64,000 nucleotides of DNA from an uncultured Thermoleophilia bacterium (GTDB lineage: Bacteria > Actinomycetota > Thermoleophilia > UBA2241). Position 1 is the first letter of the stretch. Each line of letters starts with the position of its first letter. The translations under genes were made by a program, and so were the position numbers. The notes under the pieces were generated by a model, which saw nothing but the letters and a program-made list of their open reading frames with translations, was not told where the DNA came from and searched no databases. This document shows positions 18,744 through 38,299 of this stretch, piece by piece. The stretch covers positions 448,001 to 512,000 of the forward strand of contig CAVQSP010000013.1 in assembly GCA_963715985.1 (NCBI GenBank), read 5' to 3'.

Positions 18744-19569
18744 TCACGCCTTCCAGACGGCGATGTCGCCGACGTTGATGTCGGCGGTGGCGTCCACCGG
18801 GCCCATCTTCTGGGCCAGGTAGCCGTCCTTCTCGATGAGCAGGTGTACTCGCCCGGCTCCAGGTCGCGGAGCCAGAAATCGCCGTAGCTGTCCGTTGTCG
18901 CCGAGCAGCTTGCCGCCGCCGGCCTTGAGTGGCCGTGACGGTGGCGCCCTCGGTGCACTCGTCGGCCTCGCTGTCGAAGACGGCGCCGGCGATGAAGGGC
19001 TTGGGCAGGCCGATGTAGTACACGCGCGGCTTGACGTCCAGCTCCGGCTTGAGCGGCTCGGCCTTGGCGACGAGCTCCTTGATCTGCGGGTCGTCCTCTT
19101 CGCCGAAGGCGAAGGCCCCGGTGGGGCAGGCGTCCACGCAGCGCGGCTCGGTCCAGCCGTCGTCCAGGAGGTGCGCGCAGAACGTGCACTTCTGGGCGAT
19201 GTTCAGCGAGTCGTTGAAGTAGATGACGTCCTCGTACGGGCACGCCTCCAGGCACAGCTGATTGCCGCGGCACCTGTCGGGGTCGATGATCACGGCCCCG
19301 TCGTCGCGCTTGTAGATGGCCTCGACGTTGCAGGCCGGGATGCACGGCGCCTCGTCGCAGTGCTGGCAGATGCTGTGCATGTAGGTGACTTTGACCTTGG
19401 GCACCTGGCCGCGCACCTTGTCCTGGATCTTGTTCCAGAACTGACCGGTGTCGGGTTGAGGCTTGGCGATCGGCGACCAGTCGTTGGCCACGTGCTCGTC
19501 CTTGCAGGCCACCTGGCAGTTGTAGCAGCCGTTGCAGATGTTCAGATCGATGACGAGGACCTTGCCCAT
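18744..19569 (-). CDS. BthL-type Fe-S subunit with C-terminal beta-sandwich domain (indels near 18845 and 18930)
   Basis: CNGCYNCQVACKDEH, CQHCDEAPCIPAC, CRGNQLCLEACPY, AQKCTFCAHLLDDGW, KPRVYY, TDSYGDFW. Confidence 0.9.
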
Positions 19570-22166
19570 CACGCCCTCCCCCAGATGCAGGCTTCCAGTC
19601 CGGGACCGGCGCACGGGTGGAACGGCTTCTCGAAGGCCTCAGGGTACTTGGCCTTGAGGTCTTCCATGTCGGTCTTCTCGATGTCCACCAGGAAGCCGCT
19701 CACGGCGTGGCCGACGGCGTTCTTGGAGGTGGTGTTGCGCGGCACGATGGTGTTGATGGCGCCGCCGCGGTCGATCTCGCCGGGGACGATGGGGTCCCAC
19801 TTGGCGCCGTGGTCGATGTAGACCACGGCCGGCATGATCCGCTCGGTGACGTAGGCGCCGGCGAGCACGGTGCCGCGCTCGTTGAAGATCGACACGATGT
19901 CCCCGTGACGGATGCCGCGCTCCTCGGCCACTGACGGGTGCAGCCACACCGGCTGGTACTGGTAGCCGTCGGGGCCGGTGACCTTGCAGGTCTTGATCTC
20001 GCGCAGCCAGGTGATGTCCTCGTGCTGGGAGTGGACGCTCCAGCGAGGGTGGTTGGAGCACACGAGCAGCGGATACTTCTTGGAGCGCTCGGTACCGATG
20101 GTCTCCTCGTGGCTGATGCCCTGTGCGACCCACTTGGGCACCGGCGGCCGCTCGAGGTCACGGGGGAAGTTCTCCGTCAGGCCGGTGGCCTCGAACTCGA
20201 GCTTGCCGGTGGGTGTGGTGAGCGGGTACTTCTCGGGGTCCGCATAGAAGTTGTGGAAGCCGGCCGGCACGTCCTCCCAGCCATCGTCCGTGGGGACGGC
20301 GTAGTAGCCCTTCTCATTGAGCTCTTCCCACGTGATGAGGTCCTCGCAGCGCGAGGTCTCGTAGCCGTACTTGATGAGCTCGGGGATGGTCTTGCCGCCG
20401 GTGTACTCCTCCTTGAGGCCGAGGCGCTCGGAGAGCATGACGGCGATCTCGTAGTCGCTGAAGCTCTCGCCGAGCGGCTCGATGCACTTGTGCTCGGGGA
20501 AGAGCAGGTTGTACTGGCCGCTGAAGATGTCGCCGGCGATGTCGTCCTCTTCGAGCTTGGTGTTCACGGGCAGGATGATGTCTGCCATCAGGCAGTCGTT
20601 CTCCAGCCACGGGTGCTGCGCGAACATGAACTCGATGTCCGGGTGGCGCATGGCCTTGATGTAGTCGTTGCCGCCGTTCCAGCAGGTGATCCAGCTCGGC
20701 GAGTCGGTCCACACCATGTGGATCCTGGAGCAGCCGTCGGCCGGGTACTTGTAGTGCTCGAACTGGTTGACGCGGTCGGCGGTCTCCGACTCGCAGCCGT
20801 ACCAGTCGCACTCGCCCTCGAGGATGGCCTTGGGCACGTACGTCTTGGGGATGAAGGACGGGTGGTTGGACTCGTCCGGGTGGCCGCCGGTGTAGGCCTT
20901 GCGCAGGTAGGGCACGCGCAGCGGCTTGGGCTGGGCGTACTGGTCGGGCTTGTCGAACAGGCCCCACTCGATCATCTTGGCCTGGTTCTGGCCCGGCTTG
21001 CCCAGGCCCTGCATGGCGAGGCAGATGCCCTGCAGGCGGGCCGGCTCGGTGGCGTACGGGCCGCGGATGCCGGGGCCGCCGTTGCCGATGACGACCGTGG
21101 TGCGCTTGCTGGCCCACTCGTCGGCGAGCGCCTTGATGACGCGGGCGGGGACGCCGCAGATCGGCGCCGCCCATTCCGGCGACTTCTCCACGCCGTCCTC
21201 GTCGCCCATCACGTAGGCCTCGTACTTGTCGACGCCCACGGCGTGCGTGGCGAGGTACTCCTTGTCGTACGTGCCCTTCTTGAACCAGCGGTGCGTGATG
21301 GCCAGGTAGAGCGCGGCGTCCGTGTTGGGGAGCACGGGGATCCAACGGTCGGCGTGCACGGCGGCGGCGTAGTTGAGGTCGGGGCACACGTAGATCTGCT
21401 TGATGCCGAGCTCACTCCACCAGTAGCTCAGACGGCTCGGGAGCTGGCCCTGCCAGCCCCACGGGGTGGTCTCCTGGTCGCAGCCCCAGAACAGCAGGAG
21501 CTCGGCGTTCTTGGAGATGTCCCAGAGCAGGTTGCTCTGCATGCCCTGGCCGACGGGCTCGCAGCCCCAGAAGTGCTTGTTGCCCCACCACCAGCCTTCC
21601 CAGCTGTCGGGCTGGCGGATCTGCAGGGTGAAGCCGCCCCACGCGCGCAGCAGCTTGCGGCCGGCGCCGTGGCAGGCCTGCACGACCTTGTTCTCGCCGT
21701 GCTGGTCGCACTGGTACAGGAGCGCGGTGGGCCCGTACTTGGCCTTGATGCGCTCCATCTCGCCGGTGATGATGTCGAGGGCCTGGTCCCACGAGATGCG
21801 CTTGTACTTGCTCACGCCGCGGTTCTGCGGGTTGCGCTCGCCGTTGGGGTCGAAGTCCACGCGCATCATGGGGTAGCGGATGCGGGCCGGGGAGTAGACG
21901 CGCTTCTTGTAGGCGATGCTGTACGGCGGGATCAGGGTCTTCATGCTGGGCTCGAAGGTGCTCCCGCGCACCTCCATCTTCCACGGGTTGAGGTCCGCCT
22001 TCTTGTACTTCCAGTCGTAGTGCATCGGGCGGATGCGGATGATCTTGCCGTCCTTCACGTCGACCATGGACGCGTTGGACCCGTTCTCCGGGACGCCGCA
22101 GAAGCTGATGTCCCTGATCAGCGTCTTCTCTCCGGAGGCGCCGGTCGTGCTCATGTCCTCCGCCAT
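19569..22166 (-). CDS. Divergent pyrogallol-transhydroxylase (AthL)-family Mo-bisPGD subunit, cytoplasmic
   Basis: [34 protein letters not shown] Ser ligand, HPRWSVHSQ; no FS0 motif, no signal peptide; RBS gggagg. Confidence 0.88.
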   Translation of the reverse strand: MAEDMSTTGASGEKTLIRDISFCGVPENGSNASMVDVKDGKIIRIRPMHYDWKYKKADLNPWKMEVRGSTFEPSMKTLIPPYSIAYKKRVYSPARIRYPMMRVDFDPNGERNPQNRGVSKYKRISWDQALDIITGEMERIKAKYGPTALLYQCDQHGENKVVQACHGAGRKLLRAWGGFTLQIRQPDSWEGWWWGNKHFWGCEPVGQGMQSNLLWDISKNAELLLFWGCDQETTPWGWQGQLPSRLSYWWSELGIKQIYVCPDLNYAAAVHADRWIPVLPNTDAALYLAITHRWFKKGTYDKEYLATHAVGVDKYEAYVMGDEDGVEKSPEWAAPICGVPARVIKALADEWASKRTTVVIGNGGPGIRGPYATEPARLQGICLAMQGLGKPGQNQAKMIEWGLFDKPDQYAQPKPLRVPYLRKAYTGGHPDESNHPSFIPKTYVPKAILEGECDWYGCESETADRVNQFEHYKYPADGCSRIHMVWTDSPSWITCWNGGNDYIKAMRHPDIEFMFAQHPWLENDCLMADIILPVNTKLEEDDIAGDIFSGQYNLLFPEHKCIEPLGESFSDYEIAVMLSERLGLKEEYTGGKTIPELIKYGYETSRCEDLITWEELNEKGYYAVPTDDGWEDVPAGFHNFYADPEKYPLTTPTGKLEFEATGLTENFPRDLERPPVPKWVAQGISHEETIGTERSKKYPLLVCSNHPRWSVHSQHEDITWLREIKTCKVTGPDGYQYQPVWLHPSVAEERGIRHGDIVSIFNERGTVLAGAYVTERIMPAVVYIDHGAKWDPIVPGEIDRGGAINTIVPRNTTSKNAVGHAVSGFLVDIEKTDMEDLKAKYPEAFEKPFHPCAGPGLEACIWGRA

Positions 22167-22233: not shown

Positions 22234-22298
22234 TCCCACGATGCGGAATGACTCGACCGCATTACGGGCATACTCCTGCGCCGGCGAGCCTCTGTCAA
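22234..22298 (-). promoter_or_regulatory. Promoter with tandem IclR-type boxes
   Basis: Minus strand TTGACA-17-GAGTAT, then gcccgtaatgcggtc-6 nt-ttccgcatcgtggga. Confidence 0.7.
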
Positions 22299-23606: not shown

Positions 23607-24122
23607 TCAGTACGTGCGCAGCACGTCCAGGCGGCCGGCGAGGAAGGCGGCGAGACCGGCGCCGTCCTCGAGCCCGAACAGGTGCTCGTGGGTCAGCGCC
23701 GCGTCGGTGACCAGGGCGATGGCTTCGCCGGGCGCGCAGAGCGGTTCGGCGTGGCCGGCGCCGGTGCGGAACAGCTCCACCCGGTACGGCGCCGTGTTCT
23801 TGTAGCCCTCGGCGACCACCAGGTCGAAGCCGGTGAAGTAGGTCTTCACGATGTCCACCAGGGGCAGCTCGCCGTCCAGCCTGGTGATGAAGGCCAGGCG
23901 TTCGGGCGAGGCGATGGCATAGGCGCGGGCGCCGGCCTGGCCGTGACGCCAGGAGTCCTTGCCCGGATGGTCGATCTCGAAGCTGTGCGCGTCGTGCTTG
24001 ACGGTGCCGACGCGCAGGCCGAGCTTGACGAGCTCGGGCACGACCTTCTCGATGAGGGTGGTCTTGCCCGAGTCGCTCTTGCCCACGATGGCGACGAGGG
24101 CGGGTCGGGTGCGTTCGTCCAT
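23607..24122 (-). CDS. mobB: Molybdopterin-guanine dinucleotide biosynthesis protein MobB
   Basis: IVGKSDSGKTTLIEK, VKHDAHSFEIDHPGKDSWRH, EGYK. Confidence 0.95.
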   Translation of the reverse strand: MDERTRPALVAIVGKSDSGKTTLIEKVVPELVKLGLRVGTVKHDAHSFEIDHPGKDSWRHGQAGARAYAIASPERLAFITRLDGELPLVDIVKTYFTGFDLVVAEGYKNTAPYRVELFRTGAGHAEPLCAPGEAIALVTDAALTHEHLFGLEDGAGLAAFLAGRLDVLRTY

Positions 24123-24184
24123 GCGCCTGATGCTACGCAACTGCGCGCCGCGGGGAAACCCGGGCCCAGGCCCCGGAGCAGCCC

Positions 24185-25244
24185 TCAGACTTCATAGACC
24201 TCGACCTCGACGGCCTTCACCGAGACGTACACCGGCCCGCCGTCGTCCAGGTGCATGGACGCGACGGAACCCGGAGTGACCTCGGCGATGATGGGCAGCT
24301 CGCCGCTCACGCGCGCACGCACGTGGTTGCCGACGACATCGAGATCCTCGACGACGCCCTTCCACACGTTCCTCGGCGAGCCCTCCGGCAGGACGCGGTG
24401 GAGGGCGACCGCGCGCGGCGGGATGACGGCGAACACCTCGCCGCTCTCGGGCATCGGGTCGGCGGCGATGAGGCGCCGGCCGCCGGTGAGCACGATCGCC
24501 CTTTGCTCGGCCCGGCCGCGGTACAGGTTCAGCCCGACGAGCTCGGCCACGTAGCGCGAGCGCGGGTGCGAGGAGAGCTCTTCCGGCGTGCCGGCCTGCA
24601 CGATCCGCCCGGCCTCCAGGACGACGAGGTGGTCGGCGAGCGTCATGGCCTCGATCGGGTCGTGCGTGATGACGAGACAGGTGCCTTCGTACAGCGGCGA
24701 GGTGGCGGGAGAGGGCGCGCCGCAGGTCCGCGCGGGCACCGGCGTCCATCGCCGCCAGTGGCTCGTCGAGCAGCAGCAGGCGCGGGTCGGTGGCCAGGGC
24801 CCGCGCCAGCGCCACACGCTGCGCCTGACCGCCGGAGAGGGCGCGCGGTCTCACCAGCGCGCACGACTCGAGACCCACGCGCGCGAGCCACGCGTGCGCG
24901 CTCTCGCGCGCGGCGGCCCGGCTCGCGCCGCGCGAGCGCAGGCCGAAGGCCACGTTGTCCAGCACCGACAGGTGCGGGAAGAGCAGATAGTCCTGGAACA
25001 CGACGCCGATGGGCCGCCGCTCGGTGGGCACGTGGACGGCCGCCGCCGGGTCGTCCAGCACCACACCGTCCAGGACGACCCGGCCCGAATCCAGCGGGAT
25101 CAGGCCGGCCAGCGCGCGCAGCAGCGTCGTCTTGCCGGCCGCGTTGGGGCCCAGCAGCGCGACCACGGTGCCCGCCTGCACATCCAGGCGGACGTCGAGG
25201 TCCAGCGTGCCTTTGCGCAGCGCCACCTCCGCGTCCAGGCTCAC
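24185..25244 (-). CDS. modC: Molybdate ABC transporter ATPase with TOBE domain (indel near 24705)
   Basis: GPNAAGKTT, LSGGQAQRVALARAL, LLLDEP, GSPRN, VSVKAVEV. Confidence 0.92.
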
Positions 25245-25272
25245 GCCGGCCCTCGCTCTTCCGTCCCCATCC

Positions 25273-26220
25273 TCATCGCGCCGGGAACCACCGGCTGCGC
25301 AGCGCGACCAGCACCGTGAGCGAGATGGCCAGCATGACCAGGCTCAGGGCGATGGCGGAGTCGGGCTCGTTCTGCAGGGCGAGGTACACGGCGAGCGGCA
25401 TGGTCTGGGTCGTGCCGGGCAGGTTGCCGGCGAAGGTGATGGTGGCGCCGAACTCGCCGAGGGCGCGGGCCCAGGCCAAGGCGGCGCCCGCGCCCAGGGC
25501 CGGGGCGATGAGGGGCAGGGTCACGCGGCGGAACACCGTCCAGCGGCCGGCGCCCAGGGTGGTCGCGGCGTCCTCGTAGCGGCGGTCCATGGCGCGGATG
25601 CCGGCCTCGACCGTGATCACCAGGAACGGCATGGCGACGAAGGTCTCGGCCATGATGACTCCGGCCGTGGAGAACGGCAGCGTGATCCCGAGCACGTGGT
25701 CGAGCGCCTGGCCGGCGACGCCGTTGCGCCCGAAGGCGAGCAGCAGGGCGACGCCCCCGACCACCGGCGGCAGCACCATGGGCAGCAGCACGACGGCGCG
25801 TACCAGGTCGCGACCGCGGAACCGCACCCGCGCCAGCAGCCAGGCGAGCGGGACCCCGATCACCAGGGAGATGGCGACGGCGGCGAGCGAGCACACCAGC
25901 GAGAGGCGTAGAGCCGTCATCACGCCGGGCGCCGAGAGGTCCGAGAGCAGGTGACCCCACGGGGCGCGAAGCACGAGAGCGACCAGCGGCAGCGCGAGGA
26001 AGACGATGGCGATCACCGCCAGCGGGACGAAACCGAAGGGGGCGCCGCCGCTGCGGCGGGCCGGTGTCTCCCTGCCTCCGCGGGGGGGCCGCCGGGACCA
26101 GGGCCCGGCCGGCTCCCGGTCCGGCGTCAGCGTGTCGCCGGCCACCACGGCCAGGTTGGCCTCCACGCCCGGGCTACGGCGCCGCCCGTCGGGCGGGACG
26201 TTGTCGTCGCAGGTGGTCAC
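25273..26220 (-). CDS. modB: Molybdate ABC transporter permease (true start may be downstream)
   Basis: LPMVLPPVVGGVALL, FVAMPF, WARALGEFGATITFAGNLPGTTQTMPL. Confidence 0.93.
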   Translation of the reverse strand: MTTCDDNVPPDGRRRSPGVEANLAVVAGDTLTPDREPAGPWSRRPPRGGRETPARRSGGAPFGFVPLAVIAIVFLALPLVALVLRAPWGHLLSDLSAPGVMTALRLSLVCSLAAVAISLVIGVPLAWLLARVRFRGRDLVRAVVLLPMVLPPVVGGVALLLAFGRNGVAGQALDHVLGITLPFSTAGVIMAETFVAMPFLVITVEAGIRAMDRRYEDAATTLGAGRWTVFRRVTLPLIAPALGAGAALAWARALGEFGATITFAGNLPGTTQTMPLAVYLALQNEPDSAIALSLVMLAISLTVLVALRSRWFPAR

Positions 26221-26238
26221 GGCATCCGGCGGCGACGC

Positions 26239-27099
26239 TCAAGAAGGTGGTGGCCCGAAGCCGAAGCCCTGCAGGGTCTGCTGCCCGGCAGGTGAGAGGA
26301 CGTAGTCGACGAATGCCTGCGCCTGTGCCGAGGCCCCACTCTCCTTGAGCGTCGCGATAGGATAGTCGGCGGTCACGTTGGCGTCCGCGGGGATCGCGAC
26401 TCCCGCGACCTCGTCCGCGGCCGCGCGCACATCGGTGACATACACGATGCCGGCGTCGGCCTCGCCGAGGGCGATCTTGGTCACCACGCCCTTGACGCTC
26501 TCTTCCAGCGAGACCGGCTTCACCGTCACGCCCGCGCGTGCGAGGACCGCCTGGGCGTACTTGCCCGCCGGGACCTCGGGTGCGGCCAGCACCACCTTGA
26601 GCTCCGGGTGCGCCAGCGACTCCAAGCCCGTGACGCCCTCGGGGTTTCCCGGGGCCACCACGATCTCCAGCTGGTTGGTCGCGAAGATCTGCGGTGCGGC
26701 GGCGCCACCTGCGATCGCATCCATGCTCGCGGTGTCGGCCGTGGCGAGGACGTCGGCAGGCGCGCCTTGCCCGATCTGCGCCACCAGGTCCTGGCTGCCG
26801 GCGAAGTCGAAGACCACCGCCGTGCCGGGGTGGGTCGCCTCGAAGTCGGCGCCGAGCCTCGTGAACGCCTCAGTCAGGGAGGCGGCCGCCAGCACGTGCA
26901 GCTTGACCGCGTCGTCGCCGGACGAGCTGCCGCCGCAGGCCGTGGCGCCGAGGGCGCTCGCCACCAGCGCGAGCACGAGCGCCGCAGCGGTGAGCAGGCG
27001 TCTTCGGCGACTGGAGCGGGGTGCCGGGCCCGCGCGGAGTGCCGCCGTTCGCGGCCGTTCCGCGGGCGGTCGACCCGGCAGGGTCGGACCTCGCCTCAT
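26239..27099 (-). CDS. modA: Molybdate-binding lipoprotein
   Basis: Lipobox ATAC, VLAAASLTEAF, FAGSQDL, GAPADV, VPAGKYA, GEADAGIVYVTD. Confidence 0.93.
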   Translation of the reverse strand: MRRGPTLPGRPPAERPRTAALRAGPAPRSSRRRRLLTAAALVLALVASALGATACGGSSSGDDAVKLHVLAAASLTEAFTRLGADFEATHPGTAVVFDFAGSQDLVAQIGQGAPADVLATADTASMDAIAGGAAAPQIFATNQLEIVVAPGNPEGVTGLESLAHPELKVVLAAPEVPAGKYAQAVLARAGVTVKPVSLEESVKGVVTKIALGEADAGIVYVTDVRAAADEVAGVAIPADANVTADYPIATLKESGASAQAQAFVDYVLSPAGQQTLQGFGFGPPPS

Positions 27100-27106
27100 G
27101 TCCCTT

Positions 27107-27245
27107 GCTCCTTTCCAAGCACGGGGAGGTCCGGGCGTTTCCACCCGGGCCCACGACGGCGAGCACGTCGCCGCCCCACGGTCTGTCCGTGGTACGGCCC
27201 TGCACCCATAGCAGCGACCTGCCGTAGGGCGGAGGGCTTGGAGTC
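27107..27245 (-). ncRNA. Moco RNA motif (molybdenum cofactor riboswitch) in the modA leader
   Basis: Minus strand ACUCCAAGC..CCUA..UAUGG..CCGGGUG-GAAA-CGCCCGG-A-CCUCCCCGU-GCUUGGAAAGGAG; P1 3' strand covers the modA RBS. Confidence 0.85.
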
Positions 27246-27344
27246 GGACGGAGAGAAGGGTAGCACGGGTGTCGTGGGGCGTTCCAGTGCTCGCCGTGGC
27301 GTAGACCCGGCGGCCCGGCGCTACGGCAGGCGCCGCCGTTGCCG

Positions 27345-28481
27345 TCAGGAAGTGAAGCCGCGCAGCCCCAGGTGTTCGCCGAGGAAGGCGGCCAGCTCCT
27401 CCACGTCGTCCGGCGCGAAGCGGTGCGGGTGCGGCACGTCGGCGTCGCTGACCAGCGCCAGCGTGACGGACGACGCGAGGAGCGGCTCCTCGCGCCCCTC
27501 ACCGGGGCGGAACACCTCGACGACCCACGGCGTCTCGTGCCGGTACCCCTCACAGACGACGACGTCGTAGGCGGAGAAGTAGCGCGCCACGATGGTGGCG
27601 AGGCTGGGCTCGCGCTCCATGCCGGTGACGAACGCGAGCTGGGAGGACGAGCCCACAGCGTAGGCGTGGGCCCCGGCCTGCGCGTGGCGCCACGAGTCCT
27701 TGCCGGGGGTGTCCAGGTCGAAGCGGGCAACGCGTTTGACGGCGGCGACGCTCAGGCCGCGGCGCGTGAACTCGGGGATGAGCCGCTCGATGAGCGTGGT
27801 CTTGCCGCTCCCCGAGCGGCCGACCACGCCGAGCACGAGCGGCCCGGCGGGCGGGCCTTCACGGCCGTCCGCGGCGCCGTCTTCCTCTCCCGCGAGGCGC
27901 CGCGCCTCGGCCCAGTCGCCCGGCGTGTTGACGTTGAAGAACGGGTGCGCGTCGGTGAACGGGATCTGCCGCACATTCACAAGGGGGTAGAGGTCGAGGA
28001 TGCTGTGCGCCCCGACGGCGAGCAGCGCGCGGATGTGCGGCAGGCAGCCGGGGCCGTACACGGCGTGGAGCGGCTCCAGGTGGCCGCCGACGACGGGCAG
28101 CGCCACGTCGGCGCCGGCGTAGCCGCCCAGCACCCGCTCCACGGCCGCGGCGTCGGGGAAGACGACGTCGGTGGCGAGCGTGAAGAAGGGCTCGCCGAAC
28201 CGCGTGAGCAGCGACGCCAGCCCGGCCAGCGGCGAGCCGGTCACGATGTCCGGGACCACCTCCACGCCCGGCGGCAGCGGGTCCGGCGCCTGGTCGGCAT
28301 CACGTACGGAGAGCGCGACGACGGGGAAGAGGCCGCGCAGGAAGTCGAGGTTGCGCTCCAGCAGCGTGGCCCCGGCGAGGCGCAGACGGCGCTTGTCGTG
28401 CCCCATGCGCCGCGCTTCGCCTCCCGCGAGGAGGGCGCCGATGCGGATGCCGTGCAGGTCGATAGGGGTGTGGCCGGCCAC
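27345..28481 (-). CDS. mobA: Fused MobA (Moco guanylyltransferase)-MobB protein
   Basis: LLAGGEARRMGHDK, SPLAGL, EPLHAVY, FFNVNTP, then VVGRSGSGKTT and GKDSWRH. Confidence 0.92.
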   Translation of the reverse strand: MAGHTPIDLHGIRIGALLAGGEARRMGHDKRRLRLAGATLLERNLDFLRGLFPVVALSVRDADQAPDPLPPGVEVVPDIVTGSPLAGLASLLTRFGEPFFTLATDVVFPDAAAVERVLGGYAGADVALPVVGGHLEPLHAVYGPGCLPHIRALLAVGAHSILDLYPLVNVRQIPFTDAHPFFNVNTPGDWAEARRLAGEEDGAADGREGPPAGPLVLGVVGRSGSGKTTLIERLIPEFTRRGLSVAAVKRVARFDLDTPGKDSWRHAQAGAHAYAVGSSSQLAFVTGMEREPSLATIVARYFSAYDVVVCEGYRHETPWVVEVFRPGEGREEPLLASSVTLALVSDADVPHPHRFAPDDVEELAAFLGEHLGLRGFTS

Positions 28482-28528: not shown

Positions 28529-28592
28529 TTGACACGCACCCTCACGGCGGTAGGATTCCCGTATCGCGGGCATGCTGGTCCGCATTGTGGAA
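28529..28592 (+). promoter_or_regulatory. Promoter with tandem IclR-type boxes
   Basis: TTGACA-16-TAGGAT, then tcccgtatcgcgggc-6 nt-gtccgcattgtggaa. Confidence 0.72.
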
Positions 28593-28662: not shown

Positions 28663-31266
28663 ATGGCGCACACGCAGAGACTCACCAACGCGACGACCGG
28701 CGGGCCGTTGTTCGTGGACGTCGAGGACGGCCGCATCGTGCGCATGACGCCGATCGACCTCGACGAGGACGACAAGGGCGACTGGACCATCGAGGCGCGG
28801 GGCCGCACCTTCGCCCCCCCGCGCCGCACCACCCTCTCGCCGCACGCGCAGGCGGCACGCTCCATGGTGTACTCGCCCAACAGGATCCTGCATCCGATGA
28901 AGCGCGTCGACTGGGACCCCGACGGCGAGCGCAACTGCCAGAACCGCGGCGTCTCCGGCTACGAGGAGATCAGCTGGGACGAGGCGCTCGACCTCGTCAC
29001 CACGGAGCTCATCCGCGAGAAGCGCGAGAACGGCCCCGGCTCCATCCTGACCACCTGTAGTTCCCACCACCTGTGGGGCAATCTCGGGTACCGCCACAGC
29101 GCCTACTACCGCTTCCTCAACCTCATGGGCATGGTGCACACCGCCCACAACCCGGACAGCTGGGAAGGCTGGCACTGGGGCGCGATGCCGATGTGGGGCA
29201 ACAGCCACCGTCTCGGCATCCCCGAACAGTACGACCTCCTCGAGGACGCCCTCAAGCACACCGAGATGATCGTCTTCTGGTCCTCGGACCCCGAGTCCAC
29301 CGGCGGCGGCATCTACTCCGCCTTCGAGAGCACCTGCCGGCGCTACTGGATGAAGGAGCTCGGGATCAAGATGGTGTTCGTCGATCCCTACTACAACCCC
29401 ACCGCCGAGCTGTTCAGCGACAAGTGGTTCGCCCCGCGCCTGGGCACGGACGTGGCCTTCGGGCTCGCCATCGCGCACGTGTGGCTGGCTGAAGGCACCT
29501 ACGACAAGGAGTACGTGGCCGAGCGCACGCACGGCTTCGACGAGTGGAAGGACTACGTCCTCGGCGCCACCGACAACGTGCCCAAGACGCCCGAGTGGGC
29601 GGAGGGCGAGTGCGGCATCCCGGCCCGCCAGATCCGTGCCCTGGCGCGCGAGTGGGGCGCCAGGAAGGTCATGCTCGCCGCCGGCGGCCTCGGCGGCTGG
29701 GGCGGCGCCTGCCGCTCGGCCACGGGTAACGAGTGGGCGCGCACCATGGTGGCGCTCGCGGCGATGCAGGGCTACGGCAAGCCGGGCGTCAACATCTGGG
29801 GCACCTCTCAGGGTGCGCCGTCGGACTGCTCGTTCGTCTTCCCCGGCTACGCCGAGGGCGGGATGTCCGGCGACCCGGAGAAGTCCGCGGCCGCCTACCG
29901 CATGCTCTACCGCCTCTTCGCCCACGACACCGGGCTGCACCCGACGGTCAACGCGCACGACTCCACCGAGGGCATCGCCATCCCGCGCCTGCGCATCCCC
30001 GAGGCGATGATGCACGAGAAGTTCGAGTGGCGCGGCAAGGGCTTCTGCGGCCCGTCCATCCAGAGCCAGATGCAGAAGTACCAGTACCCGGCGCCGGGCT
30101 ACCCGTTCGTCACCATGTACTGGCGCTACGGCGGTTCGTTCTTCGGCACCATGCAGCAGACCAACCGCTACGTGAAGGCCTACCGCGAGGGCAAGGTCCG
30201 CACCGTCGTCAACCAGTCCATCTGGATGGAGGGCGAGGCGAAGTTCGCCGACATCATCCTGCCCGCCTGCACCAACTTCGAGCGCTGGGACATGAGCGAG
30301 TTCGGCAATTGTTCGGGCTACATCCCGGACAACCACAACCAGACCAACCACCGCGTGATCGTCTTCCAGAAGAAGTGCATCGAGCCGCTCGGCGAGAGCA
30401 AGTCGGACTACGACATCTTCGCCGCCGTGGCCGGGCGCATGGGCATGGGCGACGTGTTCACCGAGGGCGGCATGGACGAGTACGACTGGTGCCGCGCCTA
30501 CTTCGACGCCACAGATCTGCCCAAGATCACCACCTGGGACCAGTTCGAGAAGAAGGGCTACGTCGTGGTGCCCTTCCCCGACGACTACAAGAGCACCCCG
30601 GCCATGCGCTGGTTCGCCGAGGGGCGCAAGCGCGACACCCCGGACTGGGGCCCGCGCCCCGGCGACACCGTGGGCTTCAAGGGCCTGCAGACGCCCTCGG
30701 GCAAGATCGAGTTCGTCAGCAAGACGCTCAAGAACCTCGAGCTGGACGTGATCGACCCCGAGCGCCCGGCCATGGGCCCGCAGTTCATCCCCAGCTGGGA
30801 GGGCCACCACACCACCGAGCTGTACGGCACGTACCCGCTGCAGATGGTGAGCCCGCACCCGCGCTTCAGCTTCCACACGATGGGCGACTCCAAGGGCACC
30901 TGGCTCAACGAGGTGGAGGAGCACCGCATCCTGCACGACGACGGGCACCGCTACTGGATCATGCGCCTGAACAGCGTGGACGCGGCGGCGCGGGGCATCG
31001 CCGAAGGCGACCTCATCCGCGCCTTCAACGACCGCGGCGCGGTGATCCTCTCGGCCCAGCTCACCGAGCGCGTGGCCCCCGGCACGGTGCACTCGTACGA
31101 GAGCTGCGCCGAGTACCTGCCCACCGGCGAGCCTGGTGCCTCCGCCGACTTGGCCGGCTGCGTCAACATCCTCACCAACATGCGCACCATCACGCCCACG
31201 TCCCAGGCAATGTCCAACAACTCCTGCCTCATCCAGGTAGAGAAGTGGGAGGGGGAGGCCTCATGA
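28663..31266 (+). CDS. athL: Pyrogallol:phloroglucinol transhydroxylase alpha subunit (AthL-like, canonical active site)
   Basis: [80 protein letters not shown] match Pelobacter acidigallici AthL as I recall it. Confidence 0.88.
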   Translation: MAHTQRLTNATTGGPLFVDVEDGRIVRMTPIDLDEDDKGDWTIEARGRTFAPPRRTTLSPHAQAARSMVYSPNRILHPMKRVDWDPDGERNCQNRGVSGYEEISWDEALDLVTTELIREKRENGPGSILTTCSSHHLWGNLGYRHSAYYRFLNLMGMVHTAHNPDSWEGWHWGAMPMWGNSHRLGIPEQYDLLEDALKHTEMIVFWSSDPESTGGGIYSAFESTCRRYWMKELGIKMVFVDPYYNPTAELFSDKWFAPRLGTDVAFGLAIAHVWLAEGTYDKEYVAERTHGFDEWKDYVLGATDNVPKTPEWAEGECGIPARQIRALAREWGARKVMLAAGGLGGWGGACRSATGNEWARTMVALAAMQGYGKPGVNIWGTSQGAPSDCSFVFPGYAEGGMSGDPEKSAAAYRMLYRLFAHDTGLHPTVNAHDSTEGIAIPRLRIPEAMMHEKFEWRGKGFCGPSIQSQMQKYQYPAPGYPFVTMYWRYGGSFFGTMQQTNRYVKAYREGKVRTVVNQSIWMEGEAKFADIILPACTNFERWDMSEFGNCSGYIPDNHNQTNHRVIVFQKKCIEPLGESKSDYDIFAAVAGRMGMGDVFTEGGMDEYDWCRAYFDATDLPKITTWDQFEKKGYVVVPFPDDYKSTPAMRWFAEGRKRDTPDWGPRPGDTVGFKGLQTPSGKIEFVSKTLKNLELDVIDPERPAMGPQFIPSWEGHHTTELYGTYPLQMVSPHPRFSFHTMGDSKGTWLNEVEEHRILHDDGHRYWIMRLNSVDAAARGIAEGDLIRAFNDRGAVILSAQLTERVAPGTVHSYESCAEYLPTGEPGASADLAGCVNILTNMRTITPTSQAMSNNSCLIQVEKWEGEAS

Positions 31267-32096
31267 AGAGCTGGCACCTGATCGTCGACGTGGCCCGCTG
31301 CCACGACTGCAACGACTGCTTCCTGGCCGACAAGGACGAGTTCGTCGACAACGACTTCCCGCCCTACTCGGCCGCCCAGCCCTGGCACGGCCACCGCTGG
31401 ATGCACATCAAGCGCAAGGAGCGCGGGCAGTTCCCGCTGGTGCAGACCGCCTACCTGCCCATGCCCTGCATGCACTGCGACGAGGCGCCGTGCCTCACCG
31501 CCGACGGCGCCGTCTACAAGCGCGAGGACGGCCTCGTGATCATCGACCCGGTCAAGGCCAAGGGCCGCAAGGAGATCGTCGCCAGCTGCCCGTACAGCGC
31601 CATCTACTGGAACGAGGACAAGGAGCTGGCGCAGAAGTGCACCGGCTGCGCTCACCTCCTCGACGACGGCTGGACGGAGACGCGCTGCAGCCAGGTCTGC
31701 CCGACCGACGCCATCAAGCTCGTGGTGGCCGAGGAGGCCGAGTTCACCGCGCGCGTGGCCGCGGAAGGGCTCGAGCGCTACCGTGACGGCCTCGGCACCG
31801 CGCCTCGCGTCTGGTACCGCAACCTGTACCGCTGGGACAAGGTCTTCCTCGCGGCCACGGTGGTCTTCGGCGACAGCGACGAGTGCGGCGCCGGCGCCGT
31901 CATGACCGTGACGAAGGACGGCCGGGCCGCCGGCGAGGCCACCTGCGACATCTTCGGCGACGCCTACGTGGACAAGCTCGAGCCCGGCGCCGAGTACGGC
32001 GTCACCATCGTCGCCGACGGCTACAAGCCGGCCACCTGCACGGCCAAGCCGGCCGCCAGCCTCAACCTGGGCACCATCACGCTCGAGAAGGCGTGA
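31263..32096 (+). CDS. bthL: Transhydroxylase beta subunit (BthL-like)
   Basis: DVARCHDCNDC, GHRWM..RKERG, CMHCDEAPC, DPVKAKG, AQKCTGCAHLLDD, PRVWYRNLYR; ATGA coupling to athL. Confidence 0.88.
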   Translation: MKSWHLIVDVARCHDCNDCFLADKDEFVDNDFPPYSAAQPWHGHRWMHIKRKERGQFPLVQTAYLPMPCMHCDEAPCLTADGAVYKREDGLVIIDPVKAKGRKEIVASCPYSAIYWNEDKELAQKCTGCAHLLDDGWTETRCSQVCPTDAIKLVVAEEAEFTARVAAEGLERYRDGLGTAPRVWYRNLYRWDKVFLAATVVFGDSDECGAGAVMTVTKDGRAAGEATCDIFGDAYVDKLEPGAEYGVTIVADGYKPATCTAKPAASLNLGTITLEKA

Positions 32097-32552: not shown

Positions 32553-33344
32553 ATGGACCCAGAAGGCTCCGACAGACCGGCCGACCGGCGGATGGGCGTG
32601 CAGGTGATCGCCCGCGCCGCCGAGATCTGCCGCGAGCTGGCGACATCGACCGACGGCCTCACCACGGCCGAGCTGGTAGAGCGCGTCGGCCTGTCCCGGC
32701 CGACCGTGTACCGCATCGTCCGCGCCCTGATGGACGAGGACTTCGTCCGCCAGGTCGCGCCGGGCCGATACGCGGTGGGGCCGGCCTTCCTGGTGATCGG
32801 CGGCTCGACCTACGGAGGGCTGCGGCACGACATGCGGCCGTTCATGAAGGAGCTCTCCGGCGAGCTCGGCGAGACCATCGATCTCGCCGTCCTCGACAAC
32901 GGCGAAGCCCTCTTCGTCGACCAGTTCGTCGCGCTGCGAGGGCTCCGCGTGGTGGCGCACATGGGCGCGCGCTTGCCGCTGCACTGTACGGCGAGCGGCA
33001 AGGCGCTGCTGGCGGCGCTACCGCCCGACGAGGCCGAACGCGAAGTGCCGGACACTCCGCAGGCGTACACCCCGAACACCGTCACCGACAGGGCCGCCCT
33101 GCTCCAGGAGCTGGAGGAGGTGCGGCGGACGGGCATCGCGTACGACCACGAGGAGTACGTGATGGGGGTCTGCGCCGTGGCAACGCCCGTGTTCGACGCC
33201 GTCGGTGCCATCGGCGCCCTCACCGTCGAAGTGCCCGCCGTCCGTTTTCACGGTCGCGAGAAGCCGATCGCCGTCGCGGTGCTGCGATGTCGCGACCTCG
33301 CCCACCGCGCCCTGCTCGGAACGGAGCCGGCTCACCAGCGCTAG
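32553..33344 (+). CDS. IclR family transcriptional regulator 1
   Basis: GVQVIARA, GLSRPTVYRIV, GETIDLAV, PLHCTASGKALLA. Confidence 0.93.
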   Translation: MDPEGSDRPADRRMGVQVIARAAEICRELATSTDGLTTAELVERVGLSRPTVYRIVRALMDEDFVRQVAPGRYAVGPAFLVIGGSTYGGLRHDMRPFMKELSGELGETIDLAVLDNGEALFVDQFVALRGLRVVAHMGARLPLHCTASGKALLAALPPDEAEREVPDTPQAYTPNTVTDRAALLQELEEVRRTGIAYDHEEYVMGVCAVATPVFDAVGAIGALTVEVPAVRFHGREKPIAVAVLRCRDLAHRALLGTEPAHQR

Positions 33345-33507: not shown

Positions 33508-34881
33508 ATGGCTTCGGACTACGACATGGGCAAGTCCCGTCTTGTCACGCGACGCGACTTCCTCAAGACGGGCGCGCTGGCGGGCGCAGCCCTGGGAGTG
33601 GGCGGCGCCCTCACGGGTTCGCTGGCCGCCTGTGGCACCACGAGCTCCGGCGGCAGCAGCGGCGACAGCAGCTCCGGCGCCGAAGGCCGCGAGATCAAGA
33701 TCGGCTTCGTCACGCCGCTCACCGGACCGCTGGCCTCGTTCGGTATCCCCGACGCCTGGTGCGTCAAGCAGTGGGAGGCGTCGGTCGCCGACGGTCTCAA
33801 GTGCGGCGACGGCCAGGTCCACCCGATCAAGTTCCTCGTCAGGGACACGCAGTCCGACACCAACCGCGCCGCTACCGTGACCGGTGACCTCATCACCAAC
33901 GACGGCTGCGACATCATCATGGCGGCCTCCACGGCCGACACGGTGCCGCCCGTCGCCGACACGTGCGAAGCCATGGCCGAGCCGTGTGTCACCAACGACT
34001 GCCCGTGGCAGGCGTACTTCTTCGGCCGCGGCGGCGACCCCGCCAAGGGGTTCGAGTGGACCTACCATTCGTGGTGGGGTCTCGAGGGCATCACCGCCAC
34101 GTTCGTCTCCATGTGGGACGCGCTCACGACCAACAAGAAGGTCGCCGAGATGTGGCCCAACGACGGTGACGGCCTCGCCTGGGCCGACCCTGAGAAGGGC
34201 CAGCCGCCGGTCCTCAAGGCAGGCGGCTACACCATCATCGACGGCGGTCGCTACCAGGACCTCACCGACGACTACACGCCGCAGATCGCCAAGTTCAAGG
34301 CGGCCGGCGCCGATATCCTGAGCGGCGTCATGCTGCCCCCCGACTTCACCAACTTCTGGAAGCAGTCGCTGCAGCAGGGCTTCAACCCGATGATCGCCAC
34401 CGTGGGCAAGGCGCTCCTCTTCCCGCAGTCCCTCGAGGCGCTTGGCGACGTCGGCTACAACCTCTCCAGCGAGTGCTGGTGGTCGCCCAACCACCCGTTC
34501 ACGTCCTCCCTCACCGGGCAGACGTGCAAGGAGATCGCGGACCAGTACGAGACCGACAACAGCGCGCAGTGGACGCAGCCGATCCTCCACTACGCGATCT
34601 TCGAAGTCGTCGCCGACGCCCTCAAGCGGGCGACGAACGTGGACGACAAAGCCAACGTCCGCGATGCCATCGCCGCCACCGACATGCAGACCATCGGCGG
34701 CCGCATCACGTGGAGCAGCGACGACAAGAAGCTCAACCCGGTGCCCAACGTCTGCACCACGCCCATCACGGGCGGCCAGTGGGTCAAGGGTGACAAGTAC
34801 CCGTACAACCTGGTCGTGGTCGACAACTCGCAGGCCCCCGAAGTCCCGACCCAGGCCGAGTTGCAGCCACTCCAGTACTGA
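33508..34881 (+). CDS. ABC substrate-binding protein (LivJ-like fold), Tat lipoprotein, copy 1
   Basis: TRRDFLK plus lipobox LAAC, IKIGFVTPLTGPLASFG, DTQSD, NDGDG. Confidence 0.9.
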   Translation: MASDYDMGKSRLVTRRDFLKTGALAGAALGVGGALTGSLAACGTTSSGGSSGDSSSGAEGREIKIGFVTPLTGPLASFGIPDAWCVKQWEASVADGLKCGDGQVHPIKFLVRDTQSDTNRAATVTGDLITNDGCDIIMAASTADTVPPVADTCEAMAEPCVTNDCPWQAYFFGRGGDPAKGFEWTYHSWWGLEGITATFVSMWDALTTNKKVAEMWPNDGDGLAWADPEKGQPPVLKAGGYTIIDGGRYQDLTDDYTPQIAKFKAAGADILSGVMLPPDFTNFWKQSLQQGFNPMIATVGKALLFPQSLEALGDVGYNLSSECWWSPNHPFTSSLTGQTCKEIADQYETDNSAQWTQPILHYAIFEVVADALKRATNVDDKANVRDAIAATDMQTIGGRITWSSDDKKLNPVPNVCTTPITGGQWVKGDKYPYNLVVVDNSQAPEVPTQAELQPLQY

Positions 34882-34913
34882 GGGCGCCTGACGCACGTCT
34901 GAACGCCGTTTGA

Positions 34914-35126: not shown

Positions 35127-35190
35127 TTGACCGCAACGCCTCAGTCCGCTAGAGTTCCAATAAACGGAATGAACGTTCCATAAGATGGAA
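35127..35190 (+). promoter_or_regulatory. Promoter with tandem IclR-type boxes
   Basis: TTGACC-17-TAGAGT, then ttccaataaacggaa-6 nt-ttccataagatggaa. Confidence 0.72.
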
Positions 35191-35238
35191 CGAAAGGACA
35201 GGACAGGCGCGGGCTTCCACGCGACCTGGAGGGCTCCC

Positions 35239-38200
35239 ATGACGGTATCGGGACGACAGCGCGCGGCGCGCGCGGTGCAACAGGCGAAGGGGACGCTGGC
35301 GGAGACGCAGTTCGCCGCGGTCCTGGCGGCGCTGCCGGTGCTCCTCAGGACCACGGCCCACCGGCACCCGGCCTTTGCCGCGCGGCTGCGCGAGCGCGAC
35401 CTCGTGGCCCAGATCGTCCTCGCCGGTACGAGCCGCGGCCGGGCCTACGCGTTCCGCGACGGTGCGGTGCACTCCCGCGCCGGCCTGCACCCCAAACCGG
35501 ACATCACCATGACCTTCGACTCGGCCGAGCTGGCCGTGCGCCTGCTCAAGCCCTCCCGCGATTACCTGGAGTTCATCGATGCCCTCAAGAACTTCCAGAT
35601 GAGGGTGGAGGGGCCGGACGAGCTCGCCGTGTGGTTCTCGGAGACGCTGCAGATGATGCTCACGGCCGGGCTGGAGTTCGGTACCGATGTGGGCGGCGGG
35701 GTGCGCCGCTACACGAGCAACACCAACGGCGGCCCGGTGTACGTGTTCGTCAGGGACGGGCGCATCCTCCGCATCACCCCGATCGAGTTCGGCGAGGACG
35801 ACGCCGCGCCCTGGACCATCGAAGCGAGGGGCCGCAGCTTCACGCCTCCCCGCAAGACGACGGTGAGCTCGCACACCCTCGCCTGGAAGTCGCTGATCTA
35901 CTCGCCGGACAGGCTGCTGTACCCGATGAAGCGTGTGGACTTCGACCCCGCCGGCGAGCGCAACCCGCAGAACCGCGGCACCTCAGGGTACGAGCGCATC
36001 TCGTGGGACGAGGCGCTGGACCTGGTGGCGTCCGAGATCAAGCGTGTCAAGCGCGAGCACGGCCCCGGGGCGATCATGAACGGCAGCGGCTCGCACCACA
36101 CGTGGGGCGTGCTGGGCTACTGGCTGAGCGCCCGCATCCGCTTCTTCAACACCATCGGCTGGACGCCGGTGATGCACAACCCGGACAGCTGGGAGGGGTG
36201 GTACTGGGGCGCGTCGCACCACTGGGGCCAGACGGCGCGTAACGGGGGCGGCGAGACGTACGGCACGGTGGAGGACTGCCTCAAGCACTGCGAGATGGTG
36301 GTGTTCTGGTCCTCCGACCCGGAGGCCACGAGCGGTGTGTACGGCGCTCACGACGGCACGATCCGGCGCCAGTGGCTCAAGGACCTCGGCATCCCCTTCG
36401 TGCACATCGACCCGTACTTCAATCACACCGCCTCCTTCATGGGCGGCAAGTGGCTGGCCCCGCGGCCCGGCACCGACAGCGCCATGGTCCTGGCCATCGC
36501 GCACGTGTGGATGACGGAGGGCCTCTACGACCGCGAGTACGTGGCGGAGCGCACGGTGGGCTTCGAGAAGTGGCGGGCCTACGTGCTCGGCGACGAGGAC
36601 GGCGTGCCCAGGACGCCGGACTGGCAGGAGGTCGAGACCGGGGTGCCCGCGCGCGACGTACGTGCGCTCGCGCGCGCGTGGGGGTCGAGAAAGACGTACC
36701 TTGCCGCCGGCGGCCTCATCGGCTTTGGCGGCGCCTGCCGCACGGCCACCGGCACCGACTGGGCGCGCGGCGTTGTGTGCCTGATGGCCATGCAGGGCCT
36801 CGGCAAGCCGGGCGTCAACATGGGTTGTCTGCAGCAGGGCACGCCGCTGGACACGCACTTCTTCTTCCCCGGCTACGCGGAGGGCGGCTACTCCGGCGAC
36901 CTGACCGGGACTGCGCTCAGCATCAACATGTACCAGCGCATGCCGCAGCTCGCCACGGTGAACACCGTGTCGCAGGTGGTGCCGCGCCTCAAGATCCCCG
37001 AGGCCATCATGGACGGGCACTGCGAGGCCTACCCGACCGACCCCAAGTCGATCGAGGGCCAGTTCATGCGCTACGAGTACCCCGCCCCCGGCCACAGCGA
37101 GGTGAAGCTGTACTACAAGTACGGCGGCTCCCACCTGGGGACGATGACCGACACCAACCGCTTCGCGCGCATGTACCGCTCGGACAAGCTCGAGTGCGTG
37201 GTCAACCAGGGGATCTGGATGGAGGGCGAGACCAGGTTCGCCGACATCATCCTGCCGGCCTGCACCAACTTCGAGCGCTGGGACATCAGCGAGTTCGCCA
37301 ACTGCGGGGGCTACATCCAGCACGCGTTCACGCAGTGCAACCACCGCGTCGCCGTGATGCAGCACAAGTGCATCGAGCCGCTGGGCGAGTCGCGCTCGGA
37401 CCACCAGATCTTCCTCGACATCGCCACGCGGCTCGGCCTGGGCACGATGTACTCGGAGGGCGTCACCGAGCTCGACTGGTGCAAGCGGCTGTTCGACGCC
37501 ACCGACCTGCCGCGGCGCATCTCGTGGAAGGACTTCCTCAAGAAGGGCTACTACGTGGTGCCGGCGCCGCCTGTGGAGCGGCGCGACCCTGTCTCGTACC
37601 GCTGGTTCGCCGAGGGCCGGGCCAAGGACACGCCCGAGCTCACGCCGCTGCCCGCCGACTACACCGAGGAGTTCGGCCACGGGCTGCAGACCCAGTCGGG
37701 CAAGCTCGAGTTCGAGGCCTCGAGCCTCAAGCGCTTCGCGCCCGACGACCCGGAGCGCGTCGCCGCTGATGCGGTACGTCCCCGCCTGGGAGGGCCCGCA
37801 CGCGGAGGAGCTGTACGGCCGGTACCCGCTGCAGCTCATCACACCGCACCCGCGGCACAGCTTCCACACCCAGAGCGACGGCAAACACGCCGCCGTGAAC
37901 GACGTGGCGGACCACCGCGTCCTGGTGGACGGCCGCTACTACTGGATCGTGCGCATGAACGCGCGTGACGCCGCCGCGCGCGGCCTCGAGCAGCACCAGC
38001 TCGTGAAGGTGTTCAACGACCGTGGCGCGGTGATCTGCGCGGTCCAGCTGACGGAACGCCTTCCGGCAGGTACAGTGCACTCATACGAGTCGTCCGCCGT
38101 CTACGAGCCCATCGGCGAGCCGGGCAGGTCTCCGGACCGCGGCGGGTGTATGAACCTGCTCACGCCGAGCCGCATGATGATCCGCAGGTCGCACGCGCTG

Positions 38201-38299
38201 GCGGCGAACTCCTGCCTCGTGCAGGTGGAGGCGTGGCGCGAGGACGACGTGGTCTGGCCGGCAGCGGGCGGGGGGTCGACGGATGGTGCGCAAGGCTGA
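35239..38299 (+). CDS. AthL-family Mo-bisPGD subunit with N-terminal SCP2-like extension (indel near 37760)
   Basis: ~150 aa extension (..[22 protein letters not shown]..), then [45 protein letters not shown]. Confidence 0.88.

Follow-up and report, generated by a model that had tools for sequence, protein, structure and literature searches.

We analyzed a 64,000-nucleotide stretch of DNA (hereafter the window; G000:C13:448001-512000) from an uncultured Thermoleophilia bacterium, in which three genes related to AthL, the alpha subunit of the transhydroxylase of Pelobacter acidigallici, lie beside genes for phloroglucinol ring cleavage. The three genes, called A1, A2 and A3 here, are exactly where an initial annotation of this DNA had placed them. 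A1 (19569..22166, minus strand, 865 aa) encodes a deep-branching alpha subunit of the molybdenum bis(pyranopterin guanine dinucleotide) (Mo-bisPGD) type, A2 (28663..31266, plus strand, 867 aa) an AthL-like alpha subunit, and A3 (35239..38299, plus strand, about 1019 aa when whole) an alpha subunit fused to an SCP2 domain. An Fe-S beta subunit gene adjoins A2 (31263..32096, plus strand, 277 aa). The AthS-like beta gene beside A1 (18744..19569, minus strand) is split over two frames: its Pfam domains Fer4_11 and CarboxypepD_reg fall in different frames, and intact relatives of 275-277 aa align across both. Molybdenum supply genes (MobB, a frameshifted ModC, ModB, ModA and a MobA-MobB fusion; 23607..28481, minus strand) stand between A1 and A2, divergent from A2. 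Four IclR-family regulator genes are interspersed, the first at 32553..33344 (plus strand), ahead of a gene for a Liv-type solute-binding protein with a Tat signal (33508-34881, plus strand).

The assembly spans 4.35 Mb at 70% GC, with 88.8% completeness and 7.3% contamination, and contains seven AthL-like genes: A1, A2 and A3, one on contig C11 and three on contig C14. Close relatives of its proteins go by Thermoleophilia or Actinobacteria in their sources. The assembly is prone to indels. Seven of the 43 window genes compared with intact relatives (44 rows, one gene appearing twice) are split across frames, one of them presumably an arginyl-tRNA synthetase gene. The initial annotation had mentioned neither the seven AthL-like genes nor three features of A3 described below, namely a frameshift, the SCP2 domain and the absence of a beta gene.

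AthL (PDB 4v4c) is the sole strong PDB match of all three proteins, with 1200 bits for A2, 852 for A3 (N-terminal open reading frame (ORF) only) and 455 for A1, against at most 268 bits for the next-best entries; in the PDB copy searched it is also the only solved structure in the family. Each protein contains PF21423 (the AthL-type first domain), PF00384 and PF01568, and none has PF04879, in agreement with catalytic subunits that lack an N-terminal Fe-S cluster. No NCBIfam model scored over its cut-off for A1, A2 or A3. The PDSW molybdenum-serine motif, already seen in the three proteins by the initial annotation, reads PDSWEG in each, and a serine ligand is given for both RhL and PgtL, which are treated as a single family (PMC10100899). 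Judged by their sequences, A1, A2 and A3 are members of the AthL/RehL (RhL/PgtL) branch of the dimethyl sulfoxide reductase superfamily. With AthL/AthS (PgtL/PgtS; PDB 4v4c-4v4e) they share the family, PF21423 and the PDSW motif, and A1 and A2 also the pairing of an alpha with an Fe-S beta subunit; the three differ in that A3 has the SCP2 domain and the replacements R153W and W354F, and A1 is without most pocket motifs.

Quick maximum-likelihood trees were built from 69 and 33 chosen rows, with midpoint rooting and the Shimodaira-Hasegawa-like approximate likelihood ratio test (SH-aLRT) as their only support measure. In them A3 is represented by an intact relative, P0003 (1019 aa, 98% identical to A3 over residues 1-500). 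Four groups come apart in the trees: the A1 group, the GYKM group, one that holds both AthL and A2, and the SCP2-fused group (support 100). Since every group has members from several phyla, the trio appears to have been assembled from old subfamilies. Recent triplication within the genome is ruled out, as the genes fall in separate clades that each include members of other phyla; by this phylogeny, the three are ancient AthL-family subfamilies and not recent duplicates. The comparison with AthL, RehL and DbhL suggested by the initial annotation was made with AthL-like proteins and gave three clades, with RehL entering only through a stand-in, the L280 protein described below.

A2 keeps the AthL pocket, as the initial annotation had it. 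All 12 checked positions (S143, H144, Y152, R153, D174, S175, W176, W354, Y404, F468, C557 and Y560, in AthL numbering mapped by hand from alignments with 4v4c) are conserved, and A2 is 61% identical to the AthL orthologue of Holophaga. That A2 is itself the AthL orthologue is ruled out, since the C11 copy is closer and A2 belongs to a sister clade. No window gene falls inside the clade of AthL-like proteins from Holophaga and genome G003. The C11 copy scores 931 bits over 453 aa and is 93% identical to its G003 counterpart, which reaches 1704 bits compared to 1200 for A2. On these scores and tree positions, the C11 gene is the genome's AthL orthologue and A2 a sister paralogue. The C11 gene (G000:C11:59549-62129) is split by a frameshift, has a beta gene and a flavin-reductase-like gene with it, and carries the tandem motif described below upstream.

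Compared with A2, the A3 proxy and the AthL orthologue, A1 shows 33-34% identity. It retains H144, D174, S175 and W176 and is without the motifs of R153, W354, Y404, F468 and Y560. The DQHGE motif reported for A1 is present, its histidine aligning with H144, and the motifs of Y404, F468 and Y560 are indeed missing; the pocket comparison of both A1 and A3 rests on alignments, and the A1 columns past W176 align poorly. DQHGE occurs in 120 of 120 top A1 homologues and PGY in none of the 120, counts that partly reflect selection of top matches. A search of the ESM Atlas with A1 returned molybdopterin-oxidoreductase clusters only, and a class-level search starting from G050 found A1 in 1 of 151 genomes, an uninformative result.

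In A3, the GSHH, GYWL (R153W) and IGFGG (W354F) motifs and the lack of KGF stand as the initial annotation described them. It left unstated that PGY (Y404) and NCGGY (C557 and Y560) are also kept. A3 therefore retains H144, D174, S175, Y404, C557 and Y560 and has lost F468. Among its 119 top homologues, again partly by selection of top matches, 114 carry GYWL, 115 carry PGY[AS]EG, and none has GKGF or GWGG. Because these signatures are fixed across the top homologues of both A3 and A1, the pocket signatures are traits of the subfamilies.

The N-terminal extension of A3 comprises about 150 residues, with its domain at 35281..35709 (plus strand). An AlphaFold model of the extension has a mean predicted local distance difference test (pLDDT) score of 82.9. 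Foldseek placed the domain closest to UbiJ-SCP2 (6h6o, E 7.6e-6), and all matches listed down to E 0.01 were SCP2 proteins or alkylsulfatases. No SCP2 protein came up when the PDB was searched with a sequence profile of this domain, unlike in the fold search, and the Pfam SCP2 model matched A3-type N-termini weakly, in 6 of 24 members. As modeled, the domain is an SCP2 fold, and it is also found in 66 of 71 more distant A3-type loci. No beta-subunit gene belonging to A3 was found at the locus. The seven near relatives of A3 with room downstream have none of their own either (0/7), compared to 49 of 58 more distant A3-type loci. SCP2-fused sisters of A3 with a GYYL signature (L158, L159, L160 and L187-L188) occur in aerobic Proteobacteria near genes of the VOC family, the fumarylacetoacetate-hydrolase (FAH) family and acyl-CoA synthetases, which suggests an uncharacterised hydroxylase feeding aerobic ring cleavage.

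A one-base frameshift splits A3 near 37758. The extra base is missing from two metagenome contigs from different runs, which are 405 and 234 bases long and have 3 and 2 mismatches, respectively, and P0003 is intact. The frameshift is probably an assembly error.

A link between A3 and a known enzyme type comes from L280, a locus that surfaced in a family-level search in which 4 of 401 genomes exceeded the cut-off; at the order level there were 6 among 401 genomes, and in none of these did the genes have a reh/dbh-like context. At L280, E3-, E2- and E1-like genes are divergent from an SCP2-fused alpha gene and its beta gene, and there are two divergent sigma-54 sites (3 matches vs 0.17 expected). 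The accessible part of PMC10084136 gives this layout for rehLS/bqdL. We used the L280 protein as a stand-in for the RehL type, the deposited RehL and DbhL sequences lying outside the comparison. It shares one 16-row SCP2-fused clade with the A3 proxy (SH-aLRT 100) and is 57% identical to that proxy, 52% to A2 and 33% to A1. Its pocket has Tyr at position 153, and so lacks R153, and keeps W354. RehLS of Aromatoleum anaerobium, beside which we place DbhLS of Thauera aromatica AR-1 as presumably the same type, is thus represented by a protein that, like A3, is SCP2-fused, without R153 and in the same fully supported clade. In contrast to A3, the L280 protein retains W354 and is encoded next to a beta gene of its own. 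Whereas the RehLS type has an oxidative, bqd-like downstream route under sigma-54 control, A3 stands with reductive phloroglucinol cleavage, sigma-70-like promoters and IclR genes: a scan of 52 window ORFs found no E1/E2/E3-like genes, and the window promoters are of the TTGAC type. A3 is best described as related to the resorcinol-type hydroxylases, though not orthologous to them; a modified transhydroxylase is the poorer description. The initial annotation had called A3 a transhydroxylase; its family membership in AthL stands, and its grouping with a resorcinol-hydroxylase-type protein makes a water- or acceptor-coupled (de)hydroxylase more likely than a transhydroxylase. L280 (9721-16640) also contains a glutathione-transferase-like gene and a Liv-type transporter, and the window's Liv-type binding protein at 33508-34881 is 42% identical to its counterpart there.

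Downstream, the second IclR gene, whose start lies within the last bases of A3, and a short-chain dehydrogenase gene with a frameshift (together 38283..39882, plus strand) are followed by a run of genes on the plus strand: a phloroglucinol-reductase-like short-chain dehydrogenase/reductase (SDR; 40162-40959), a TfD-like dehydrogenase resembling 3-hydroxyacyl-CoA dehydrogenases (40985-41926), IclR regulator 3 (41995-42777), a dihydrophloroglucinol cyclohydrolase (DPGC; 42985-43920), a cupin (43937-44287) and a triacetate-lyase (TAL)-like BKACE (44466-45296). For the Clostridium scatologenes pathway, the accessible part of PMC10470551 names W20/Y22 in CsDPGC, S122, H143 and N194 in CsTfD, a TR(S/N) motif in phloroglucinol reductase (PGR) and Trp16 in CsTAL. 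The window cyclase has W20 and Y22 as in CsDPGC. It shares 70% identity with a Holophaga protein for which that part of PMC10470551 gives 69.9% identity to CsDPGC. Residues S120, H141 and N192 of the TfD-like dehydrogenase match the CsTfD triad. Measured against the PGR, DPGC, TfD and TAL set so described, the window agrees in the cyclase, the TfD triad and the presence of an SDR and a BKACE in one cluster. It differs in that the SDR and BKACE are divergent, that there are an extra SDR and a cupin, and that the set is linked to three AthL-family enzymes by one promoter motif.

This motif consists of two 15-bp imperfect palindromes, 20-21 bp apart, with the consensus GTCCGCAATGCGGAC. It lies directly behind a TTGAC-type promoter at A1, A2, A3, both binding-protein genes and the SDR gene, and it also occupies the short gap preceding the cyclase gene. 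The A1 site (22234..22269, minus strand) follows a TTGACA promoter and has a leave-one-out score of 24.6, reached by 7 sites in the genome, all at this gene set. The A2 site (28557..28592, plus strand) scores 30.2, reached by 2 genome sites, and the A3 site (35155..35190, plus strand) 27.4, reached by 5. The remaining operator-like sites, all on the plus strand, precede the first binding protein (33457-33491), the SDR (39947-39982), the cyclohydrolase (42804-42839) and the second Liv-type ABC transporter (45396-45430), whose segment (45396..52089, plus strand) also includes IclR regulator 4 and a flavin reductase-like gene. As the A3 site overlaps an upstream ATG at 35185, 35239 is the likelier start of A3.

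In leave-one-out scans, all 7 window sites rank in the top 2-9 of 4.35 million positions. There are only two strong matches elsewhere, one inside an ORF on C14 and one at C11:62433. The latter lies outside the training set and precedes the AthL orthologue by about 300 bp. Neither reversed nor complemented genomes gave any site scoring at least 20. In relatives within the genus, a site lies upstream at 10 of 11 A1, 10 of 10 A2 and 6 of 8 A3 loci, a survey in which one promoter's site is shifted by one base and whose cut-off was reached by 6 of 3000 random windows. None of the three paralogues on C14 has the motif, with scores below 9 here and below 14 in G003. The motif was initially picked by eye; its independent tests are the C11 match and the C14 negatives. 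IclR proteins typically bind operators of this general shape, and because the locus also has four IclR genes, we propose that a putative IclR protein binds the palindrome; a scan of the intergenic regions with a generic IclR consensus was uninformative. A1, A2 and A3 are likely co-regulated with the ring-cleavage genes in a single predicted regulon. Independent regulation of the copies, which the initial annotation held would speak against a common role, is not what we see, as the motif is common to all three.

On C14 (G000:C14:502000-540000), the three further AthL-family genes are of the GYRF, GHGE and GYKM types and are accompanied by an NrfD gene and a paralogous set of SDR, TfD and BKACE genes. 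This cluster has a tandem pair of cyclases about 30% identical to the window cyclase, and the promoter motif is absent from it.

We asked how often these genes keep the same company elsewhere. The same 15 of 24 genomes of the genus have both an AthL-family domain over the cut-off and a cyclohydrolase-like match, and the other 9 have neither, although these genomes are kin and not independent. Of 16 other class members, one combines the two, and another has just the cyclase. The order A1, Mod-Mob, A2, A3, ring cleavage recurs in genus relatives, some of which are without A3 (L012, L020). A pattern scan found at least 117 A3-type loci, 80 with flanks; 9 near relatives were left out of the context counts. 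Of the 48 loci with at least 8 kb of flank, 13 have at least three pathway-like genes and 22 at least one, and many of the cyclases near distant A3-type loci are of a 37-44% type. For A1, context was read at the 41 of 79 loci that span at least 10 kb, and an AthL-type neighbor is present at 17 of these 41 (9/19 on low-GC, 3/10 on mid-GC and 5/12 on high-GC contigs).

Holophaga foetida (L177-L179) carries, in a stretch of about 25 kb, the AthL orthologue, a second paralogue of the GYRF type and a gene of the A3 type, and this trio adjoins a gene resembling hydrolases of 2,4-diacetylphloroglucinol (DAPG) or phloretin. A 2.8-Mb genome of the same class as the window (G027) has 15 AthL-type domain matches that cover all subfamilies of this analysis.

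Beyond A1 and its beta gene, several relatives carry an operon with a split transketolase, an IolN-like hydrolase, an IolO-like epimerase, a Zn-dehydrogenase and a cupin (L202:3537-8834, L206, L207, L212, L213, L227, L014, L015 and L039; also L049). The IolN-like protein matches the 3-dehydro-scyllo-inosose hydrolase model NF041098 at 320.7 bits against a cut-off of 245, and a UxaE-like gene is nearby. The operon mostly starts with the same tandem motif and was not found in the window genome. Its products may serve to cleave a cyclic 1,3-dione derived from a polyhydroxybenzene, or the operon may link inositol and phenol catabolism. A dehydration of inosose to the 1,2,3,5-isomer of tetrahydroxybenzene proved unsupported, since PMC11467972 gives 1,2,3,4-tetrahydroxybenzene for acid dehydration.

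The initial annotation had proposed a network that funnels several polyhydroxybenzenes to phloroglucinol or, alternatively, primes the co-substrate. Much of the funnel idea survives: there is one apparent regulon, AthL-type genes co-occur with the cyclohydrolase, and A1- and A3-type genes lie beside pathway genes elsewhere. It needs amending in that the AthL orthologue is the C11 copy and A3 looks like a hydroxylase. In the form we favor, and which we consider fairly probable, the members of the three old subfamilies and the C11 copy belong to one IclR-controlled regulon, through which several di- and trihydroxybenzenes become phloroglucinol and enter oxygen-free ring cleavage.

The roles of the individual enzymes, read from their alignments, are a tentative proposal in which we place rather little confidence. 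AthL requires 1,2,3,5-tetrahydroxybenzene as co-substrate to convert pyrogallol to phloroglucinol (PMC13039779). The C11 orthologue and A2 would perform this AthL-type transfer between two rings, A2 probably on another donor/acceptor pair than the C11 orthologue. Messerschmidt is said to have described in 2004 the functional roles of the AthL pocket residues, including an arginine that binds the third hydroxyl of pyrogallol. A3, with the His/Asp/Tyr/Ser core kept and that arginine lost, could work on the ring of resorcinol or hydroxyhydroquinone in the manner of resorcinol hydroxylase. Its partner in electron exchange would be a carrier, perhaps a quinone bound by the SCP2 domain, and its beta subunit would be borrowed. 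A1, without the tyrosine motifs for a second ring, might simply transfer an oxygen atom to or from a hydroxybenzene, and so form or consume a tetrahydroxybenzene, for instance. From phloroglucinol, the route would lead by way of the SDR, the cyclohydrolase, TfD and the BKACE to acetoacetate and acetoacetyl-CoA.

Pelobacter massiliensis, according to Brune et al. in 1992, reportedly turns hydroxyhydroquinone into phloroglucinol by sequential pure transhydroxylation. With more than one hydroxyl-transfer step leading to phloroglucinol, more than one AthL-type activity would be required, a point in common with this locus; the difference is that the route is reported as pure transhydroxylation and A3 looks like a carrier-coupled hydroxylase. 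In its boldest form, the proposal would make this regulon the genetic blueprint for an anaerobic resorcinol and hydroxyhydroquinone funnel, in which A3, as a quinone-coupled hydroxylase/dehydroxylase, and A1, as an oxygen-atom transferase, supply and balance the tetrahydroxybenzenes for the two AthL-type transhydroxylases, and SCP2 serves as membrane or quinone module throughout the resorcinol-hydroxylase clade. This is a speculative extension that we would put forward only with clear reservation.

A number of observations weigh against a funnel to phloroglucinol. On the side of ring cleavage, the SDR is not a clear phloroglucinol reductase: PDB 5G4K ranks only seventh among its matches (E 6.7e-42), and it reads TSR where the reported PGR motif is TR(S/N). 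The BKACE has Val14 in place of the Trp16 of CsTAL and shares 36% identity with the Holophaga protein. The operator-like motif was chosen by eye and its binding protein is putative. A3 is frameshifted in the present assembly, is just 57% identical to the L280 protein and differs from it at W354, and SCP2-fused sisters in aerobes adjoin VOC-family and FAH-family genes. No pathway gene lies within about 10 kb at 26 of the 48 well-flanked A3-type loci, and at least two pathway genes are present at just 7 of the 41 A1 loci, mostly on contigs of about 50% GC. Sporomusa acidovorans has an A3-type gene and three A1-group genes and no cyclohydrolase match. Holophaga foetida, which has AthL and phloroglucinol genes, yielded no A1-type gene (best match 42%), and the inositol-type operon adjoins A1 in relatives.

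Some of these observations would fit a regulon of parallel entries, in which the enzymes share no intermediates and each takes a phenol with a different substituent (a carboxyl, methyl, acyl or glycosyl group); the substrate of the atypical SDR and BKACE might then be a phloroglucinol that bears a substituent. The unusual residues of these two enzymes, the presence of two SDRs and two binding proteins in the cluster, the retention of A1, A2 and ring-cleavage genes in several genus clusters without A3 (including L012 and L020), and the hydrophobic-ligand type of the SCP2 domain all point this way. However, the cyclase keeps W20/Y22 and its 70% identity to the Holophaga DPGC, and the AthL orthologue has the same motif as the window genes. 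We regard parallel entries as unlikely, while taking them seriously.

A3, and perhaps A1, could instead be reductive dehydroxylases that serve as electron sinks, for example from hydroxyhydroquinone to resorcinol, without feeding phloroglucinol. The Sporomusa gene content would agree with this, as would the resemblance of the A3 SCP2 domain to UbiJ and the fact that records of anaerobic groups supply most A3-type loci. Yet A3-type genes sit inside phloroglucinol-pathway-like clusters of Actinomycetota, Bacillota and Desulfobacterota/Deltaproteobacteria, and those catechol dehydroxylases that have been characterised belong to a different clade (PMC7028382), so that we find an electron sink improbable. 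The same holds, if anything more so, for an A1 whose substrate is not a phenol but, for instance, a cyclitol derived from inosose or an N- or S-oxide, with co-regulation explained by the joint occurrence of the substrates. Its low identity to the other family members and missing pocket motifs would allow for such a substrate, as would the IolN-like gene beyond A1 and its beta gene in 9 relatives' loci, most with the motif at the operon start. Nevertheless, the transketolase/IolN/IolO-like operon was not found in the window genome, A1 keeps the AthL-specific first domain together with H144 and D174, and AthL-type genes adjoin A1 in low-GC lineages too. Finally, that A3 is a true pseudogene here, leaving the trio functionally a pair, would account for the frameshift near 37758 and the absent beta gene but is very improbable, given the two metagenome contigs without the extra base, the 7 of 43 compared window genes that are likewise split, and the intact operator-like site.

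The chemistry of AthL and the downstream pathway are known; new in the regulon that we favor are two uncharacterised, widespread subfamilies tied to this pathway by a shared promoter motif. Two transhydroxylase complexes are reported for each of two sediment Chloroflexi genomes in the accessible part of PMC3971608, and pgthAB is broadly expressed in peat (PMC12203004). The accessible part of PMC8084988 contained nothing on these enzymes. In a search that lay outside most subscription papers, we found no published account of the subfamilies, of the fusion to SCP2 or of the regulon. Such genome papers (PMC12203004 and, in the part accessible, PMC3971608) label environmental homologues as pyrogallol transhydroxylase, a label that hides at least four subfamilies with fixed, different pockets. 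The regulatory argument is that three subfamilies would work with AthL and the phloroglucinol pathway. This makes two long-standing questions testable, namely the origin of the tetrahydroxybenzene co-substrate and the identity of the enzymes that take hydroxyhydroquinone or resorcinol to phloroglucinol in anaerobes, with Holophaga foetida as a cultured model. Polyphenol turnover in wetland and soil affects carbon storage.

Two further gene groups lie near A1. At 13339-17929 (plus strand), convergent with A1, a frameshifted Mo-bisPGD enzyme gene is accompanied by Fe-S and NrfD genes, an arrangement also seen in L201; no tandem motif scoring at least 20 was found upstream of the window copy. Between the A1 promoter and mobB, at 22520-23450 (minus strand), a PIN-domain gene is paired with a probable small antitoxin gene. 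Metagenomes from wetland and soil contain DNA nearly identical to that of the window.

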